64,000 nucleotides of DNA from Methanocaldococcus sp. 16A (GTDB taxonomy: Archaea; AGJL01; Methanococci; Methanococcales; Methanocaldococcaceae). The position numbers and the translations under genes are program-made. The stretch lies in NCBI GenBank assembly GCA_049860595.1, contig CP187551.1, one strand, 5' to 3'. Below the pieces are notes generated by a model, which did no database searches, had not been told where the DNA came from, and saw only the letters and a list, made by a program, of their open reading frames with translations. Below, piece by piece: positions 22,549 to 54,429 of this stretch; position 1 is the first letter of the stretch, and each line of letters opens with the position of its first letter.

Positions 22549-23484
22549 TTATACAAAACTTTTTGCAGCAATAACCATATTTTTTAATTTATTAAAAGCA
22601 ACATCTATCGGCAATAACCTCATTCCACAATCAGGGTCTATTAAAATATTTTCAGATAAATTTTTATTTAATTTTTCATTATTTTTTAATATCTCTAATC
22701 CTTCCTCTATCAAGCTTTTTATCTCATCAACACTTTCAACCTTTTTAATTTTTGTATTTACACAACCAAAGCCTACTTTCTTTTCTATACTTTCTAAAAT
22801 ATCCAAATTTTTTTTATTTGAAGCGAATTCATGGTCTAAAATATCCACGTTAAATTTATTTAGTTCGTCAATAATATTATATACATCCCCACATACATGC
22901 ATGACAAACTTAATATCTAAACCATTAACTATAATATCTATAGCCTTTCTTGCTACATCAAAATCATATAAACCAGTTGATAGTATTGGTTCATCAATCT
23001 GTATTATTGGAACATGCTTTTTTAGTGCCTCAACCTCCTTCCTAAGAGCTTTAGCAATATCATAAATTAAATTTTCATCTTTGTTATCTGAGTAATAACT
23101 TTCAACCCTAACAGACGAAGCTATTGTACAAGGTCCTGTTATAATACCTTTAACTTCAACATTTGGGTTGAGTTTTTTAGCTATATTCTTAGCATATAAA
23201 ATATCTTTTAGTGTTATTGGTTTTATAAACTCTATTTTGCCAAGAACTCTCTTTCCATCAAAACCATACATATTGTTTGTAAAAATCTCAACCATGTCTC
23301 CCCTAACTTGCCCATCGCTTATAATTTCAATCCCTGCTTTAACTTGGTCTTCAACTGCTCTTTCAATAGCATATTTATATTCGTCATATAAACCAAGTGC
23401 TTTTTTTACCTTATCTAAAAATGTTTCTTCCTTTTTAACTACTGGATAACTACCAACAACTGTTGTTATCATCATTACCACCAT
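22549..23484 (-). CDS. metE: Methionine synthase, archaeal core MetE type
   Basis: TTVVGSYP, SDGQVR, IQIDEP, HVC and DPDCGM Zn ligands. Confidence 0.92.
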   Translation of the reverse strand: MVVMMITTVVGSYPVVKKEETFLDKVKKALGLYDEYKYAIERAVEDQVKAGIEIISDGQVRGDMVEIFTNNMYGFDGKRVLGKIEFIKPITLKDILYAKNIAKKLNPNVEVKGIITGPCTIASSVRVESYYSDNKDENLIYDIAKALRKEVEALKKHVPIIQIDEPILSTGLYDFDVARKAIDIIVNGLDIKFVMHVCGDVYNIIDELNKFNVDILDHEFASNKKNLDILESIEKKVGFGCVNTKIKKVESVDEIKSLIEEGLEILKNNEKLNKNLSENILIDPDCGMRLLPIDVAFNKLKNMVIAAKSFV

Positions 23485-45027: not shown

Positions 45028-45642
45028 GTGGTAATTATCATTGGTGGCATAATTTTATCTGGTGGTAAAGGGAAAAGAATTGGAGGTAAAAAGCCATTTA
45101 AAGTTTTTAATGGAAAATATCTTATAAATTATCCATCAGATATTTTAAAGACTCTAAATATTCCTTTTGTTACTGTTTTTGCAAAAAATTCTATTGATTT
45201 ATATATGGAGAGGGAATATTTAATTAAATACAAATGCTTAATATCATTTGACTTGATTGAAAATAAAGGGCCATTAATGGGCATTTTGTGTGGGATGAGG
45301 GCTTTAAATGCTAAGTGGTTTATTGTTTTGCCGTGTGATTGCCCTTATGTAACAAAAGAAGCTTTAGAAAAGTTAATGTCTTATATTGAAATAGCTGAAA
45401 GAAACAACAATCTCTGTATAATTCCAAAACATGAAAATGGATATATAGAGCCATTATTTGCCTTGTATAAGAGAGATTCCCTACATATTTTAAATAAAAT
45501 TATTATGGAAGATAAAAACTTATCGATTAGATATTTTATATCCCACCTAAACCCCTTATATATAAAAGCTGAAGAGTTAGATAAAACTAAAAAAATCTTT
45601 AAAAACATAAATACAATAGAAGAGTTGATGAACAATGAATAA
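45028..45642 (+). CDS. mobA: Molybdenum cofactor guanylyltransferase
   Basis: LSGGKGKRIGGKK, GPLMGI, PCDCP, EPLFALY, NINT. Confidence 0.9.
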   Translation: MVIIIGGIILSGGKGKRIGGKKPFKVFNGKYLINYPSDILKTLNIPFVTVFAKNSIDLYMEREYLIKYKCLISFDLIENKGPLMGILCGMRALNAKWFIVLPCDCPYVTKEALEKLMSYIEIAERNNNLCIIPKHENGYIEPLFALYKRDSLHILNKIIMEDKNLSIRYFISHLNPLYIKAEELDKTKKIFKNINTIEELMNNE

Positions 45643-46330
45643 ATTAAGATTAAAGAATGAAAAGGAGGTTAAAATAAACTTTGGAAAATACTGCCTTGTA
45701 GGATTTTCTTGTGATAATAAGAACAGCATTAACAATTTATTTAACTTAGCATTATCAAAAATCAGATATAGAAAGGCTATTTTAGAATACAACTTCAACT
45801 TATCAGAAGTTAGAGATAATGGTAAATACAAGAAGATTTCTAAGAAAATAAAAGAAAACGATATCTATTTTTTAGAACTCATAGATAAAATAAAGAAAGA
45901 TTTTAAAGATTTCTGCTCTTTAGATGCTGGAACCTTATTTGAGCTGTTTGTGTATTATATGCTTATGGAGTTTTTTGATGAAAATGGCATAGATGCAAGG
46001 GTTGTTAGAAATCTAAACGTTAGCTACAAAGGAGAGGCTTTTACAGAAATAGATTTATTTGTTGATGTTTTTAATAAAAAATTTATCTTTGAATGCAAAA
46101 ACAGATATATAAGCTCAAATGCTATTCTAAAACTCTATGGGATTATGAAAATGTTAGATATAAACTTTGGTATCTTAGCATCTACAAAAGAGTTTTATGG
46201 AAATATAAAGAAAGAGGACATCTTTGAGGAATACAACATTTATATCATTGACAATCTTTTAATAAAAGAGAAAAATAAGATTTTTAAAGAGTTAAAAGAG
46301 ATTTTTGAAATAAATCAATTTCAAAAATAA
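45635..46330 (+). CDS. PD-(D/E)XK restriction-endonuclease-like protein
   Basis: GTLFE...EIDL...FECK motif order. Confidence 0.7.
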   Translation: MNKLRLKNEKEVKINFGKYCLVGFSCDNKNSINNLFNLALSKIRYRKAILEYNFNLSEVRDNGKYKKISKKIKENDIYFLELIDKIKKDFKDFCSLDAGTLFELFVYYMLMEFFDENGIDARVVRNLNVSYKGEAFTEIDLFVDVFNKKFIFECKNRYISSNAILKLYGIMKMLDINFGILASTKEFYGNIKKEDIFEEYNIYIIDNLLIKEKNKIFKELKEIFEINQFQK

Positions 46331-47801: not shown

Positions 47802-50774
47802 TTATGAATATATATCAATTTTTTTAAATATATTTTCAATTCCGTCAAACCAATATTTTTTATAACCTTTAGAGAGTTTATTTATATCATCAGTATATAA
47901 ATAGAGGAGGACCTTAATTTTGAAATCATTAAATTTAAATTCCTTTGGAGAATCTATAGATCCAAAAAATTTTTCAAACCAATCTACTCTATGTTCAAAT
48001 TCTGTATGTTTTATACCTTTTGGATCTACGAAAACAATGAAGTAATCTTTTCCTTTGTTAATCCAAAATATGAAATCTGGTTTGAATTTTCTCATTTTGT
48101 TTTTATCTGAATCATAGTAAGGAATATAAATTTCATCCAAATGTTCATCTATCTTGCTGAACATCCACCAATTAATATTTATCCTATTTTTATTTTTCTC
48201 AAGGAATGCTTCTAAATCCTTTATGAATTTTACCTCACTTTGTGTTTTTATTATATGTTTAATATAATCTACCTTTTCTTTTTCTGAAAGTATAAGTGGG
48301 ATGTAATAATGATTTACTATGTTTTTTATTTTTAAATCTTTGAAAGTTTCTTCTTTCGGTTGTTTTGCTAACTTTTCTATCTCTGATGTGTATTCATCTA
48401 TAGATATTTTTCCACTTTCAAGCATTGATTTTAATTCTTTTTTCCTAGCCTCAAGATCCTTAAACTTAGAAACTTTATTTATTTTTTCTTTCAGTTCATT
48501 AATCTCTTCTTCAGATTTTAACATTACTTTAATCTTTTTAAAGTGTATTATTTCATCTTCTAATGGTTTGAATTTATCCAATTCTTCAATATTAAGATTG
48601 AAGTGAGCAATCAATTTTTGCACAGCAATGTTTAATGGAATGACTTTATCTTCATTAACTATCTTATAATACTTTTCTTTATCTTTAAAACTTTTTCTTA
48701 TTTGATTAAGAAGCTCAGGAGACACGTTATTTTGCATTATAAGAATTCTATCATCAATAGAGGTAAAATACTCCTTGAGGATATTAAAGAGTGAATCTGA
48801 AATTAGGAATTTTTGTGGCTCTCTTTCTTGATATATTTTATTTTCTGATGGTTTAAAGGTAGGAATTAATAGAGTATATTTATTTGCTTTTTCATTTTTT
48901 GTTAATTCAATTGTTTCTTCAATTCCTTTTTCTATTTTTAATGTTTCCATAACGTCATTTAGTGCTTTTCTATTTGTTCCAAAAATATAAAGTGTTTCTA
49001 TTGGAAATACCTTATCTTCTCCTCCAATTTTTTCAAATAATCCATTATCTTCTCCTTTATTGTATAAAATTTTTAATCTTCTTCTTTTACCTTTAATTGG
49101 CTCTATTCTCACACCTCTACCAACAGATTGTATAACAAATTTTCTTGCATCTTTTCCAACACCTATGTTTATGAAAAGAATAATATTTGGTCTGTTAGAA
49201 TCCCATCCTTCATAGAAAGCTCTTGAACCCATTAAAATACTTATATCTTCTCTCTCATCAAGATTTTCAAAAATACTACTATTATTTTCATAACTTTCTA
49301 CAATTTCATAACCTTTAAGATTATCTTTTATCCATTTTATTGCATCTCCAATTTTAATTAAAGCAAAGGGTTTATCGCTTGTTTTTAATTTGAATATAAC
49401 CTCTTGTCTCTTCCCAGGAATAAGTATTGCTTCTACACTTCCATGAGTTTCAGCATTGTAAATATATTTTAAAATATCCATAATCTTTATATTTTTGATT
49501 AAATTTACATCTACTTTAATAGAGATTTTTTCATATATTAGTTCAAGATTTTCTGAAAATTCTTTAAGTAATTCCTCTTTAGCCTTTTCAAAAATCTCCT
49601 CTTTTATATCTCCTTTTCCAATTCTTTCTATTTCTTCAAAGAATAATGTTAAATCAGGTTTATCTTTTTTAACGTCTGTTAAATTTACAGAATTAACTAA
49701 AGTTAGCAATAGAGGTTCATGATAAACATTTCCAGCAATTTCTTTTATATTTTCTCTAATTTTTTTGAGATACGTTAATAAAATTAATGCTTTTAAAACG
49801 ATTTTTTGTTTTTCTTCTCTATTGTAATCTTCTTTTTCTTTAAAAGCTCTCATTTCTTGCCTAAGCAAATAAATGTGTTTTCCATAACCTTCTGAAATAA
49901 ACCTTTCTAAGTTAAAGTTATAGGCAGTAGTTATAATATCTCTTGGATCAGTAAAGGTTGCTGAAAAGTTGAATAAAAATCCATTCCTTGACATAATAGA
50001 ATAATACCACTGTCTTTTTGATTCCTCTTTATCTCCTTTATGTGCTTCGTCAAGAATTATATACCAATTACCATTGTTTTCATAGTTTTTGAAATCAATT
50101 AATTTCTCTTTTTGCTCATCACTTATTAAGTCAGATCTATAGTAAAAAACTGTTATTCCATCGGAATATGACGTTAAACTCTCTCTTTTTATTCTATCAT
50201 ATTCGGTTAATTCAAAAAGGTTTATTTTAAAGCCTCTTTCTGTTACTAATTCATTAAATTCATCAACATGTTTTTTTAGTTGCTTTATTAAATCATCCCT
50301 ATGTGTAAGTATTAATATATCCTTCTTTGGAATTTCTCCAAGTTCCATTAATTTTTTCAAAACTTCAACAAGTTTTACAATTAATAATGTTTTACCACTC
50401 CCCGTAGCCATCCAAAAAGCAGACCTGTTTATCATATTGTAGAATTTTATTCTATCTTCTTCAATTGGATAGTATTGAGTAATAGTGTTTTGAATATCTT
50501 TTTTTATTTTTGAAAGTTTTATATCCAATTCTTTTTCTAAATCTTTATCTAAACCATTAAATTGGTATCTTTTATAGAATTCTCTTTTATCTGCTTTATT
50601 TTCTTTGAAGTAAAGATATAAAACCTTAATAGCATTTTTTAAAGCTTCTTGTTGGAAGTCCCATAATTTTTTAGTTTTTGAAAATCTTACAGTATCTAAC
50701 ATATTCCAAGTGCTTGGCAAGTCATCAAAATTAATATCTTCAACCATTGATTGGAGTATTGGATAAATTTTCAC
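47802..50774 (-). CDS. res: Type III restriction enzyme Res subunit
   Basis: [28 protein letters not shown] helicase motifs; C-terminal PDF..DPKG nuclease. Confidence 0.9.
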
Positions 50775-50777
50775 TAT

Positions 50778-51713
50778 TTACCACCATTTACATCTATAGT
50801 TTATCCCTATTGTTTTTGCATTTATGCTATTTAAATTTAAAAATTCTTTTAATTTATCTTTACTTATAGGTTTATGATTCAAATAAATGTTATTAGAGCT
50901 TTCAGGACCCTCTCCATCAAATTCTAATAAAAAGTATCCTAAATATTCATAAGGAACTTCACTTTTTGGATTTTTAACTTTTTTATCATCAGGTAATGAT
51001 TGATTTATATTATTTGCAGTGTAAAAAATATCATTAATTTTATCTATTAATTTAGATTCTGCAGGATTTGGCTTATAATCTCCATTACTCTCACATCTTT
51101 CCTCTATTAATATAAAATAACCCGTGCAATAATTAATAAAAATCCAGTTAATATTTTTCATTCTATTATGATTACATAAATTTAGTATTTTAGAACCTCT
51201 CCACTGTGACCTCTCTTCATGGGTTCCAGATTTTCGAGAACTCTTACAATCGTATAATCCCTCAATATGATTACTAATTATGAAAGAAAACCAATCTTTT
51301 TTATGTATTTTGCATAATCCTGTAAAATTACTACAAATTAGATTTATTAGTGCATTTTTATCAATCTGCAGATTATTTCCATCTAAATCTAAAGTATAAC
51401 TCCATTTTCTTTCTTTCTGTTTTAATTTTGGATTTATGTATATTTCATTATCACTTAGGTAATATATTAGATAACTACCACAATACTTGCATTTATTTTG
51501 CAAATTTAAAAATTCATCTAACATTTTAAAACAAATCGCCTGTGCAACTCTAACAGTAGCTTTTGAGCTGTTTTTTTCTTCTATCAATATAAACGAACTT
51601 AAAGAATCATCAAATATAACTACATCAATGTCTTGAGTAATTAATCCCTTCCATGATGCTAATAAATTATTTCTCATCCACTTAGAAAATTCACTTGGTG
51701 CTGACTTACCCAC
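50778..51713 (-). CDS. Hypothetical protein with two tandem PD-(D/E)XK-like domains, inside the R-M operon
   Basis: QDIDVVIF..FILIEEK and KNINWIFI..FILIEER halves; genes closely coupled on both sides. Confidence 0.65.
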   Translation of the reverse strand: MGKSAPSEFSKWMRNNLLASWKGLITQDIDVVIFDDSLSSFILIEEKNSSKATVRVAQAICFKMLDEFLNLQNKCKYCGSYLIYYLSDNEIYINPKLKQKERKWSYTLDLDGNNLQIDKNALINLICSNFTGLCKIHKKDWFSFIISNHIEGLYDCKSSRKSGTHEERSQWRGSKILNLCNHNRMKNINWIFINYCTGYFILIEERCESNGDYKPNPAESKLIDKINDIFYTANNINQSLPDDKKVKNPKSEVPYEYLGYFLLEFDGEGPESSNNIYLNHKPISKDKLKEFLNLNSINAKTIGINYRCKWW

Positions 51714-51714
51714 A

Positions 51715-54429
51715 TTACCACCACACTAAAGGTTTAATTATTTTATAATCCAAATCTTTAATATTTATTTTTTCTCCATCTTCAAACTCCAAATATTCTT
51801 CTGTAATTTTCTTTATTTTCTTTCCAAGTAAATTTGAAAGAGTTTCAGCAATATCTATATTTTTATAGAGTTTTTCTAAATTAACCTTAACCTTATTGTT
51901 TTCATAATCAACTTCTAAAGCTTCTAATAATTTTAAATCCTTCATAAAGATGTATTGGTTGTAAGGATCTTGTGTTGAATCAAAGAATGGTTCTAAATCT
52001 GCATATTTTACTCTTCTTAAAGTATCTTCATATTGCTCTAATTCGTAGTATTTGAAAAAGCCCCCAGCTTTATTCTTGTTATAGTTTTCTTTAACATCCT
52101 CATCCTTTGAAATTCCAGATTTATCATAAGCCAATACTTTTTTCATTCTTGGTAAAATTACTGTATAGAAATGTTCTCCCATCTCTACTCCAACCCATTT
52201 TCTTCCAAGTTTATGAGCTACTGCGGTTGTTGTACTACTACCTAAAAAGAAATCTAAAACTAAATCTCCTTCATTGGAAGTTGATAAAATTACTCTTTTT
52301 AATAATTGTTCAGAATTTTCTGTTGGAAATTTGAAGTTATCAGAGTATGAAGGAATGTCCTTCCAGTTATCAGTTATTTTAACCTTATCAGATGTTAAAT
52401 ATTCAACTTTCCAGTCATCTCCACCACAATTTAAACACTTATCTAATTTTTTAACCCCATAAACAATACTATCTGGTTTTATATCAAGATATTTAAACAT
52501 CTCTTTCTTATTTTTTAGAATTTTATTTATGAACTTTTCTTTTGATTCTTCATCATCCCAATAGTAAATTGCCCCACATTTTTTGCATTTCAATCTTAAA
52601 AAATGCTCTCTCAGGAGTTTATCAACTTTCTCTTGCACTAATGAGAAATGCTGTCCTTTTGGAGGATACAAAACTTTCCCAAAGAATATTCTTTCTGGTG
52701 GATTTCTTTCCCCCTGTTTTAAAAAGCCTGTCCATTTAAAATCTACCAAACTTCTGTCTCTATACAAATCTTTTCTTAAGCAATCTTCTGATTTAGAATA
52801 AAAGAATAAATATTCACTTTCTACTTCAAATTTATTAGGAGTTCCAATACTCTGTCTTTTTCTATTTACAACAATCTCATTTCTAAAATTCTCTTTTCCA
52901 AAAATATCATCCATCAAAAACCTAACATAATGATTTCCGTGATAATCAATTCTTACAAAAATACTTCCAGTATCTTTTAAAAATTCCTTAGCCAATCTTA
53001 ACCTATTCTCCATCATTGTAATCCATGCAGAATCTAAGAATCTATTAATATACATTGTAAATTCATTACTTCCAGTATTGAATGGAGGGTCGATATAGAT
53101 AGTCTGTATTTCTTCCTTAAACTTTGGTAATATGGTATTTAACGCTTGCCAATTCTCACTTTTAATTAGCCAACCATCTAACTCTTCATCCAAATTCTCA
53201 AACAATCCTAAAATCTCAAGTTCTAAATCTTTAAAATATTTTGTATCAATTGGTAAAAATTGATATTTTTGATTTAATTCAATGCCTTTAAGTGTATTAA
53301 TCAAAATCTCTTTAGGATTAAAATCTTCATCAATTAAATCTAACAAATACCATTCTATTATTTGATTTATTTTTTCAGATTTTTCAAACCTTTCTCTATA
53401 TGATTTATTGTTGGATTTAATTTCTTTCCATTCATTTAAATTCTCTTCAAATTCTCTCTTTTGCTCAACTAATTTATCTACTATTTTTTTAATAACTTTT
53501 ATACCACCTTCTTTTTTAGCGATTCTATCTAATGTAACAACATAATTGCTGTTCAAAACAAACTTTGGTTTTTGCCATATTTTAACCAATTCATCTTCAA
53601 ACTGTGCAATGAAATCAATAATTTTATATGCAATATCTTTCAAAACCTTCAACTGCTTAATCCTCTTTTCTGTAAATTGTGTTTCATCAGAGTAAATATA
53701 TTGGTAAAGCCAGAGATCAAACTGTTCTTTCAAAAACTGTTTAGCATTTTTATTTATAAAGTAGTCTACTTCATTTTGCCTTTCAAAAACTCTGAAAGCC
53801 TTTTCTAAAACCTCCATATCTAAATTCATATTTTTCTTTTTTAACTCTTTTAATATTTCATTAACTTTTGTTTTTCTTCCTCTTTCAGAATATAAAACAT
53901 TAAAAACTATAGTTCCATCCCCTTTAATTTCTTTTAGCTCATAAATTAATTCTCTCTTCTCATTTGCTTTTTTATGCTGTAATTTGGAAACATCAAAGAA
54001 AAACTTTACACCATCAATTTCTACTTCCATACTTTTTGGTAGAATATCTGTTTTTACATAATAAAGCATGTGTGTTTTCCAGAACATTACAACATCTTTG
54101 TTGTCCGTATAAACTCTCTCATATATTCTCTCATTAAAAGGCGTGTATCTAAAATATATTGAACCACTCTCACTGAAATATCTCTTAAAGAAACTATAAA
54201 GTTTATTAAATAACTCTTCTCTAAATTCTGGAAATTCAGCAGTTTTTTCATTTATTTCATTTTTTAATTGTTTAAAAATCTTATCAAAATATTTTGATTT
54301 TATTCTCATCAAATTGATATATCCTGATTCTCCTTCAACTTTTGCTCCTATGAAAATATCTTTCAATGCCTCAAAAAATCTGGTTTCTGAATCTAATGTT
54401 ACTTTTTTGATTTTCATTTTCTCCACCAA
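51715..54429 (-). CDS. mod: Type III R-M DNA adenine methyltransferase Mod subunit
   Basis: IYIDPPFNTG motif IV before DFFLGSSTT motif I (beta-class order); central variable region with CKKC/CLNC. Confidence 0.9.
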   Translation of the reverse strand: MVEKMKIKKVTLDSETRFFEALKDIFIGAKVEGESGYINLMRIKSKYFDKIFKQLKNEINEKTAEFPEFREELFNKLYSFFKRYFSESGSIYFRYTPFNERIYERVYTDNKDVVMFWKTHMLYYVKTDILPKSMEVEIDGVKFFFDVSKLQHKKANEKRELIYELKEIKGDGTIVFNVLYSERGRKTKVNEILKELKKKNMNLDMEVLEKAFRVFERQNEVDYFINKNAKQFLKEQFDLWLYQYIYSDETQFTEKRIKQLKVLKDIAYKIIDFIAQFEDELVKIWQKPKFVLNSNYVVTLDRIAKKEGGIKVIKKIVDKLVEQKREFEENLNEWKEIKSNNKSYRERFEKSEKINQIIEWYLLDLIDEDFNPKEILINTLKGIELNQKYQFLPIDTKYFKDLELEILGLFENLDEELDGWLIKSENWQALNTILPKFKEEIQTIYIDPPFNTGSNEFTMYINRFLDSAWITMMENRLRLAKEFLKDTGSIFVRIDYHGNHYVRFLMDDIFGKENFRNEIVVNRKRQSIGTPNKFEVESEYLFFYSKSEDCLRKDLYRDRSLVDFKWTGFLKQGERNPPERIFFGKVLYPPKGQHFSLVQEKVDKLLREHFLRLKCKKCGAIYYWDDEESKEKFINKILKNKKEMFKYLDIKPDSIVYGVKKLDKCLNCGGDDWKVEYLTSDKVKITDNWKDIPSYSDNFKFPTENSEQLLKRVILSTSNEGDLVLDFFLGSSTTTAVAHKLGRKWVGVEMGEHFYTVILPRMKKVLAYDKSGISKDEDVKENYNKNKAGGFFKYYELEQYEDTLRRVKYADLEPFFDSTQDPYNQYIFMKDLKLLEALEVDYENNKVKVNLEKLYKNIDIAETLSNLLGKKIKKITEEYLEFEDGEKINIKDLDYKIIKPLVWW

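Follow-up and report, generated by a model that had tools for sequence, protein, structure and literature searches.

We analysed a window of 64,000 nucleotides from Methanocaldococcus sp. 16A (assembly GCA_049860595.1, contig CP187551.1) that carries a restriction-modification (R-M) operon of type III with an additional gene, here denoted gene X. As stated in a first-pass annotation made from the sequence letters, X sits between mod and res, a position borne out by the coordinates of the open reading frames (ORFs) on the minus strand. The span given there for X, 50778..51723, describes a real frame; its end at 51723 takes in the final 9 nt of mod, and the true end lies at 51713. All ten peptides quoted from X in that annotation are found in its translation. 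The features of the operon are the following.

51715..54429 (-): mod, a type III DNA methyltransferase of 904 aa with the C-terminus ..PLVWW, identified by PF01555 and the PADLOC profile MTase_III
50778..51713 (-): X, a tandem nuclease-like ORF of 311 aa with a GTG start, stop codon included
51264..51713 (-): domain 1 of X (residues ~1-150), with an intact catalytic-type motif; E value of 1.2e-22 with the single-domain profile
51573..51632 (-): X codons D28, D30 ... E45, E46, K47, the putative active site by conservation
50781..51257 (-): domain 2 of X (residues ~153-311), a degenerate copy; E value of 3.0e-21 with the single-domain profile, and profile comparison of half against half
51096..51155 (-): X codons N187, N189 ... 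E204, E205, R206, the decayed counterpart of the half-1 motif
47802..50774 (-): res, a superfamily 2 (SF2) helicase-nuclease subunit of 990 aa, identified by Pfam ResIII
48018..48080 (-): P899-D900 ... D917-P918-K919 near the C-terminus of Res, its own nuclease motif by alignment
51715..51723 (-): TGGTGGTAA at the end of mod (WW-stop), with GGTG 5 nt ahead of the X start
50778..50786 (-): TGGTGGTAA at the end of X (WW-stop), with GGTG 7 nt ahead of the res start

The genes are tightly spaced, with 1 nt between the mod stop and the X start and 3 nt between the X stop and the res start. The operon is flanked by housekeeping genes (DUF711 and a pseudouridine synthase), and its G+C content is 25-29%, compared with 30-33% in the adjoining DNA.

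X contains an internal repeat. Smith-Waterman alignment of half 1 with half 2 yielded a score of 61, which none of 2000 shuffles reached (33.1 +/- 5.8). When the 15-member family alignment was divided and its halves compared profile against profile, the result was Prob 97.3 and an E value of 2.7e-11 over 114 columns. A third test used a profile, A4, constructed from 27 single-domain relatives only; it matched the two halves of X separately, each across nearly its full length, at the E values listed above. The internal duplication claimed at first pass is borne out by all of these tests. Collectively, these data show that one small domain (~120-170 aa), restriction-endonuclease-like by motif and topology, is present twice in X, fused in tandem; operons of this kind also carry the domain on its own, as a single-domain gene.

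The two copies differ in their catalytic-type motifs. As the first reading of the sequence had recognised, half 1 keeps a D..ExK pattern (D28, D30 and E45-E46-K47) and half 2 carries a degenerate N..ExR counterpart (N187, N189 and E204-E205-R206). Conservation was analysed in 47 non-redundant tandem proteins, 6 near-identical ones having been dropped from the 53 collected. In half 1, residues D28, D30, E45, E46 and K47 are each present in 47/47 tandem relatives; at the domain level, R14, D30, E45 and K47 are invariant in 44/44 sequences, the 27 single-domain proteins included. In half 2, 30 of the 47 proteins have D at the position equivalent to D30, whereas 9 have H and 6 have N (N189 in the window); the position equivalent to K47 is occupied by K in 9 and R in 3 (R206 in the window); the full D..ExK is found in half 2 of only four tandem relatives. 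Half 2 has invariant positions of its own, namely W190, N194, Y195, N248 and Y255. The single-domain protein P0031 (173 aa) carries the sets of both halves, that is, QDID, NYC, E-x-K and NP..Y.YLG. After the duplication, the halves seem to have split the ancestral features between them, with catalysis assigned to half 1 and another surface to half 2.

Neighbours were assigned by tblastn, Pfam and PADLOC in 36 loci, comprising the window, one genome locus and 34 metagenome loci (L and G below denote loci and genomes). Type III mod and/or res genes adjoin X in 32 of them, so that X homologs are tied to defence loci, in line with the first-pass proposal of a defence component. The gene orders were as follows.

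mod-X-res: 11 loci, in 2 of which additional genes separate X from res
mod-X up to the end of the contig: 6 loci
mod-res-X: 7 loci, 2 with mod off the contig
X-mod-res or X-mod: 3 loci, with a Res that matches PF19778
mod, single-domain X, res: 5 loci, 1 cut before res
no identifiable neighbour: 4 loci (L004, L011, L028 and L035) with flanks of < 530 nt, L028 having a helix-turn-helix (HTH) gene upstream

The association with type III operons is therefore nearly exclusive in these loci, a statement that covers the loci listed and leaves out the contexts of the distant single-domain representatives P0043-P0069. Three positions of X with respect to mod and res were seen. There are four gene orders, and in a tree of 23 tandem X proteins every order keeps to a single part. 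All 14 mod-X rows, among them L004 and L011, whose neighbours are not visible, fall in one clade with a support of 100/100; all 6 mod-res-X rows form one clade at 100/99, and the 3 X-mod rows cluster at 83/81. The identity of X declines together with that of Mod. The partner Res proteins are diverse by the PADLOC REase_III profiles, matching PDLC03647, 03651, 03654, weakly 03648, or none, as in the window.

Unbiased surveys of genomes are consistent with these locus counts. X was found in 2 of 40 genomes of the window's own phylum, both with the order mod-X-res. In the phylum of the Archaeoglobus metagenome-assembled genome, 8 of 401 genomes gave matches at E <= 0.001, of which four lie in type III operons (G040, G212, G090 and G194); among the four best new matches (G212, G090, G250 and G194) this holds for three. 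One further, doubtful match adjoins a DnaG-like primase (E value of 9.3e-4), and two were rejected as spurious because they are RIO kinases. The match in G250 (L069 7672-8112 (-); E value of 3.1e-5) is a distant single-domain relative next to a DUF365 gene, and lies between a methylase of the Eco57I/MmeI type (1342 aa) and a PLD-SNF2 helicase-nuclease (1120 aa). The X family may also serve other systems composed of a methylase and a helicase-nuclease.

Several of these loci show further variation. In G194 (L070 7695-8453), a 252-aa protein between mod and res combines an unrelated N-terminal segment of 120 aa with one X-like domain that carries D.D..EEK (E values of 3.4e-4 by hhalign and 3.4e-5 by genome search), which makes a third architecture of the family. 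In G212 (L067 7754-8631 (-)), X is split into frames of 144 and 154 aa by a frameshift in an A run of the inter-domain linker; decay, a slippery site or a mistake in sequencing could each explain it. Decaying operons were also seen: X is broken in L031 (7989-8826), where Res is truncated at 692 aa, and Res is distributed over two ORFs in L014 (3130-6149) and L008 (4113-7087). L034 carries an X ORF of 97 aa.

The presence of X between mod and res is optional. Of the 40 genomes of the window's phylum, 6 carry a homolog of Res at E <= 1e-20. The closest relatives, in G031 and G001, are 73% and 71% identical to the window's Res and 71% and 70% identical to its Mod, and genome searches found X absent from both. 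These data show that X is dispensable for the Mod/Res pair as such. No remnant of X was found in the X-less junctions of G031, G001 and G033; the 219-aa ORF in the gap of G033 was considered as a family member and rejected as unrelated.

What fills the junction varies, as the survey of homologous operons suggested by the first-pass annotation makes clear: it is empty or holds X or other cargo. The junction of G031 comprises ~260 bp with no ORF, and that of G001 encodes a 410-aa transglutaminase-like membrane protein (DUF553, E value of 4.7e-23). G034 has a GGACT-like gene and a 147-aa ORF with weak similarity to the X family (hhalign E value of 7.9e-5 and Prob 61; genome search E value of 0.009). 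A RhuM/Fic gene comes after X in L008. In G090, an ImmA/IrrE-HTH gene and then a DUF4411 gene separate a single-domain X from res. The order in L012 is X, a relic of a second Mod C-terminus (..KPLIWWE), a RhuM gene and res. Embedded cargo such as PrrC, RhuM and DOC is known from type I loci according to excerpts from PMC3710099, and the variable content marks the mod-res junction as a slot for cargo of the same kind.

The cargo genes themselves were located at L008 3190-4116 (RhuM/Fic fusion), L068 4066-5723 (ImmA/IrrE-HTH and DUF4411) and L045 4647-5879 (DUF553 transglutaminase-like membrane protein). In L012 (1234-1943), the second Mod-like end is carried by a 69-aa ORF that is 61% identical to the end of the window's Mod over 31 aa. 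It looks like the footprint of a recombination event between two different type III operons.

The first-pass annotation had also drawn attention to a 9-bp direct repeat at the ends of mod and X and had inferred a cassette captured into the operon. The repeat is exact at both coordinates: TGGTGGTAA ends mod as ..VWW* and X as ..KWW*. Reading the repeat as a scar of capture does not hold, because TGG is the sole Trp codon, so that two WW-stop ends, each conserved independently of the other, yield the 9-mer automatically; the repeat follows from two protein ends and not from recombination. The terminal WW of Mod (..(P)LIWW) is family-wide: of 27 Mod C-termini that can be seen in the loci, 18 have it, and so do the Mods of G031 and G001, which lack X. 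The terminal WW of X is confined to its nearest relatives, with W at position 310 in 14/47 and at position 311 in 11/47 proteins, and it aligns with W141-F142 of half 1. Four copies of the 9-mer are present in the window, compared with 0.44 expected and with none of 100 shuffles reaching four; the remaining two are at 23475 and 45060. In several loci the start of X overlaps the end of Mod, where ..IWWE* shifted by one base gives MVGI... The repeat may supply the ribosome-binding site of the next gene. What truly resembles a scar is the Mod end that L012 carries in duplicate.

By definition and in annotation, a type III system consists of two genes; the window's operon departs from this by its third conserved gene between mod and res. 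Its Mod is an N6/N4 methylase of the type III kind (PF01555 E value of 8.1e-40; PADLOC MTase_III PDLC03638 E value of 1e-299 over the full length). Its Res (ResIII E value of 4.8e-15) combines an SF2 motor with a C-terminal PD..(D/E)xK, and P899-D900...D917-x-K919 is invariant in 10/10 aligned Res. No PADLOC REase_III profile and neither Pfam RE_endonuc nor PF19778 matched the window's Res; since the PADLOC profiles miss Res, profile-based defence finders would miss this type III system. X as a replacement for a lost Res nuclease was considered and rejected, because PD..(D/E)xK is kept in 15/15 Res C-termini compared.

Two observations concern the surroundings of X within the window. Mod residues ~620-680 (52400-52600 (-)) contain a CxxC...CxxC (KCKKCG ... 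CLNCGG) in the variable middle that is not seen in the 70%-identical Mods of G031 and G001 and may form a zinc ribbon in the target-recognition part. At 45635-46330 (+), 1.5 kb from res and separated from it by one housekeeping gene (DUF711), lies a gene for a stand-alone PD-DExK protein of 231 aa, which matched the PADLOC profile described as "same family as the one fused to CARF" (E value of 1.7e-96). It may represent a second defence-type nuclease near the operon.

Structure prediction and Foldseek, the check proposed at first pass for a nuclease fold, gave a fitting motif and topology and weak matches to solved structures. The AlphaFold (AF2) model of X consists of two similar alpha/beta domains (mean predicted local distance difference test score of 90.0, predicted template modelling score of 0.89) connected by a linker of low confidence around residues 161-164. 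In the model of domain 1 alone (local score of 89.3), D30 is located just ahead of strand 31-34 and E45/K47 lie within strand 40-47. X thus presents an acidic residue and a (D/E)-x-K on neighbouring beta strands, as PD-(D/E)xK enzymes do, and this placement, required by the restriction-endonuclease fold, files X as nuclease-fold by motif and topology.

Structure searches used the whole model of X and domain 1 alone as queries. Foldseek found no match in the PDB at E <= 0.001, the best row being Hje (1ob8; E value of 0.032, prob 0.80). Further structural rows for the whole model included D212, Bax1, Vsr and N.BspD6I, and rows for VRR-NUC and tRNA-splicing endonuclease appeared in both searches. 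Non-nucleases are among the rows with similar Z scores: in the domain-1 search, Rep15 scored 4.2 and a domain of a family II pyrophosphatase 4.0. Among the viral models of BFVD, one match passed, an unnamed 121-aa protein (E value of 9.4e-5; template modelling score by target of 0.59), followed by many rows named PD-(D/E)XK at weak E values. In the ESM Atlas, the neighbours, each with a score of 0.92, comprise a VRR-NUC cluster and small hypothetical proteins from viruses. The evidence for the fold, derived from a predicted model, is consistent but weak; by motif and topology, X would be a nuclease-fold protein that belongs to neither Hjc nor VRR-NUC.

Sequence searches point to a small family of its own. 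X gave no Pfam family at E <= 1, chance-level rows only against NCBIfam and PADLOC, and chance rows with nothing relevant in a profile search of PDB sequences. The family is rare, with 15 proteins (X included) among 5.8 billion clusters, and 56 representatives at E <= 0.001, 26 of them at E <= 1e-10, among 1.84 billion proteins. Many of the weaker representatives are proteins of 110-170 aa, the N-terminal part of which resembles half 1 and the C-terminal part half 2. None of 30 single-domain relatives reached a Pfam cut-off; VRR-NUC (PF08774) appeared below threshold in 2 of the 30 (17.1 and 14.6 bits, compared with a cut-off of 23.8) and was not seen with X itself. PHROGs gave no match at an E value below 0.0097 for the 20 single-domain relatives tested, neither 50,697 phage records nor 72,556 plasmids yielded a match by tblastn with one single-domain relative as the query, and profile A1 found no relative in viral contigs. 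A phage or plasmid origin of X accordingly received no support from the PHROG, phage-record, plasmid and viral-contig searches. The X family is absent from Pfam, NCBIfam, PADLOC and PHROGs, and we found no paper describing it in the literature on third or accessory genes of type III R-M systems or on VRR-NUC. What is new is the family and the finding that it resides almost exclusively, yet optionally, in operons of type III; its fold class was already known, as was the host system.

We tentatively favour the possibility that X is an accessory endonuclease with one active site, dedicated to type III R-M operons. The single-domain forms would act as homodimers, and the tandem X would be a pseudo-dimer with a single metal-dependent active site. 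Having no DNA-recognition domain of its own, X would be targeted by way of the DNA-bound Mod2Res complex and would add a second strand cut, a nick, to the cut made by Res. The extra cut would strengthen or broaden the cleavage of unmethylated invading DNA, in the manner of the small subunit of heterodimeric restriction enzymes. By Pfam, the model and the single-domain profile, no DNA-recognition domain is seen in X, the whole protein being made up of the two copies. The lack of any domain beyond these copies and of a partner gene of its own, combined with the occurrence beside several Mod/Res subfamilies, favours an add-on targeted by Mod2Res. Because all compared Res keep their nuclease motif, X is not a substitute for a lost Res nuclease, and because the host genome carries a separate canonical Hjc elsewhere, it is not the housekeeping resolvase. 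Of the interpretation offered at first pass, the two halves with one site, the link to defence and the variable slot stand, and the capture scar falls.

Several points weigh against an accessory endonuclease of this kind. The closest Mod/Res pairs (70-73% identity) do without X, which makes it unlikely that X is an integral subunit. Every Res beside X retains its own PD..(D/E)xK, so no activity is missing. The slot also holds toxin-like cargo (RhuM/Fic, ImmA-DUF4411), which fits a guard or a passenger equally. A search among longer proteins yielded no form in which X is fused to Mod or Res, a weak piece of evidence. By sequence, X matches no curated family of the PD-(D/E)xK clan and no solved structure, and hhalign comparison of A4, A2 and each of the two halves with Hjc (30 sequences from related genomes) was not significant (Prob 0.2-1.0%, E values of 0.056-0.35); the path of this non-significant alignment places D30 and E45-x-K47 onto the D and E-x-K of Hjc. 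A complex prediction of X with Res residues 600-990 scored 0.00 and counts neither way.

A rather unlikely alternative is that X is a guard comparable to PrrC, that is, a latent DNA or RNA nuclease which the type III enzyme holds inactive and which a phage anti-restriction factor frees to abort the infection. X is optional and embedded in an R-M operon, as prrC is in a type Ic locus, and the same slot carries RhuM/Fic and ImmA with DUF4411, modules of a kind treated as extra layers of defence in excerpts from PMC3710099; RNA endonucleases are, moreover, among the structural rows at similar Z scores. X has no PrrC-like sensor or NTPase domain, however, since the protein consists of two nuclease-like copies, and no conserved antitoxin-like partner lies beside it. 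The link to type III systems is also family-wide and old, which suggests a role in the normal reaction.

We consider it very unlikely that X is a selfish, free-standing homing endonuclease that cuts X-less mod-res junctions and spreads by recombination with the ends of mod and res as homology arms. Such an element would account for the sporadic distribution (2/40 and at most 6/401 genomes), for junctions that are empty or differently filled in close Mod/Res relatives, and for the relic of a second Mod C-terminus directly after X in L012. The gene orders, each in one well-supported part of the tree, and the parallel fall of X and Mod identity instead indicate long co-descent and not frequent invasion. 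Nor does homing fit the three positions of X relative to mod and res, the catalytic set present in 47/47 proteins with clear decay in two loci only (L031 broken, G212 frameshifted), or the empty G031 junction, which holds no X remnant.

Equally poor prospects attach to a host-protective repair enzyme, a structure- or lesion-specific nuclease like Hjc, RecU or Vsr that mends R-M damage on the host chromosome. The nearest structural rows are junction resolvases and Vsr, and in known systems vsr genes occur in linkage with a gene for a methylase. An Hjc is already encoded by the host, however, and Mod is an N6/N4 methylase, so the 5-methylcytosine (m5C) deamination problem solved by Vsr does not arise; the loss of one of two active sites would also be odd for a resolvase that needs paired cuts.

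A non-catalytic regulator or assembly factor, the nuclease-like fold of which only binds DNA or Mod/Res, is extremely improbable: the fold of domain 2 does persist without the catalytic Lys, with N194, Y195, N248 and Y255 invariant, but D28, D30, E45, E46 and K47 of domain 1 are kept in all 47 tandem proteins and D30, E45 and K47 in all 44 distant sequences. We give hardly any credence to an independent type IV (modification-dependent) restriction enzyme that shares the operon, as X has no modification-reading or other DNA-recognition domain and the near-exclusive link to type III systems would be unexpected for a stand-alone enzyme.

Whatever its exact role, X implies that the "two-gene" type III defences can carry a dedicated, optional third part, and defence-finding tools should inspect the mod-res junction. 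The series from single-domain to tandem proteins with one decayed site would be a clean natural case of a homodimer turning into an asymmetric pseudo-dimer, and X is a possible new handle on the completion of cleavage or on R-M backup. That type III enzymes require two inversely oriented sites and two nuclease domains is a peculiarity that has long been studied. A bolder proposal, which we regard as decidedly unlikely, is that there is a widespread three-component type III form in which Mod2Res is the docking partner of a dedicated pseudo-dimeric nickase with one active site, or of the single-domain homodimer ancestral to it; docking would change the cleavage rule, for example by allowing a double-strand break from one complex. 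Such a form would remove the classical need for two head-to-head sites, a weak point exploited by phages.

Comparison with known systems sets X apart from each of them. The canonical Mod2Res enzymes of the EcoP15I type share with the window's operon the PF01555 Mod, the Res composed of an SF2 helicase and a C-terminal PD..DxK, and the close spacing; the operon differs by the third, nuclease-like conserved gene and by a Res without a PADLOC REase_III match. PrrC and RloC of type I loci are likewise optional genes inside an R-M operon, with cargo of the RhuM/Fic type in the same neighbourhoods (excerpts from PMC3710099). The fold of X is unrelated to theirs, with no ABC ATPase and no HEPN domain by Pfam, and its host system is type III. 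Hjc/Hje and RecU, the minimal homodimeric PD-(D/E)xK enzymes, show no significant sequence or profile relation to X (no Pfam family; hhalign Prob <= 1%); in contrast to them, X is a putative fused pseudo-dimer with one decayed site that resides in R-M operons, and the true Hjc of the genome is elsewhere. VRR-NUC does not match X, and the two single-domain relatives mentioned above remain below its cut-off. Vsr is characterised by a C5-cytosine methylase partner and a sequence family match, and X has neither. No sequence relation was found to the small subunit of R.BspD6I (PDB 2p14), the putative partner of X being instead the Mod2Res motor complex.

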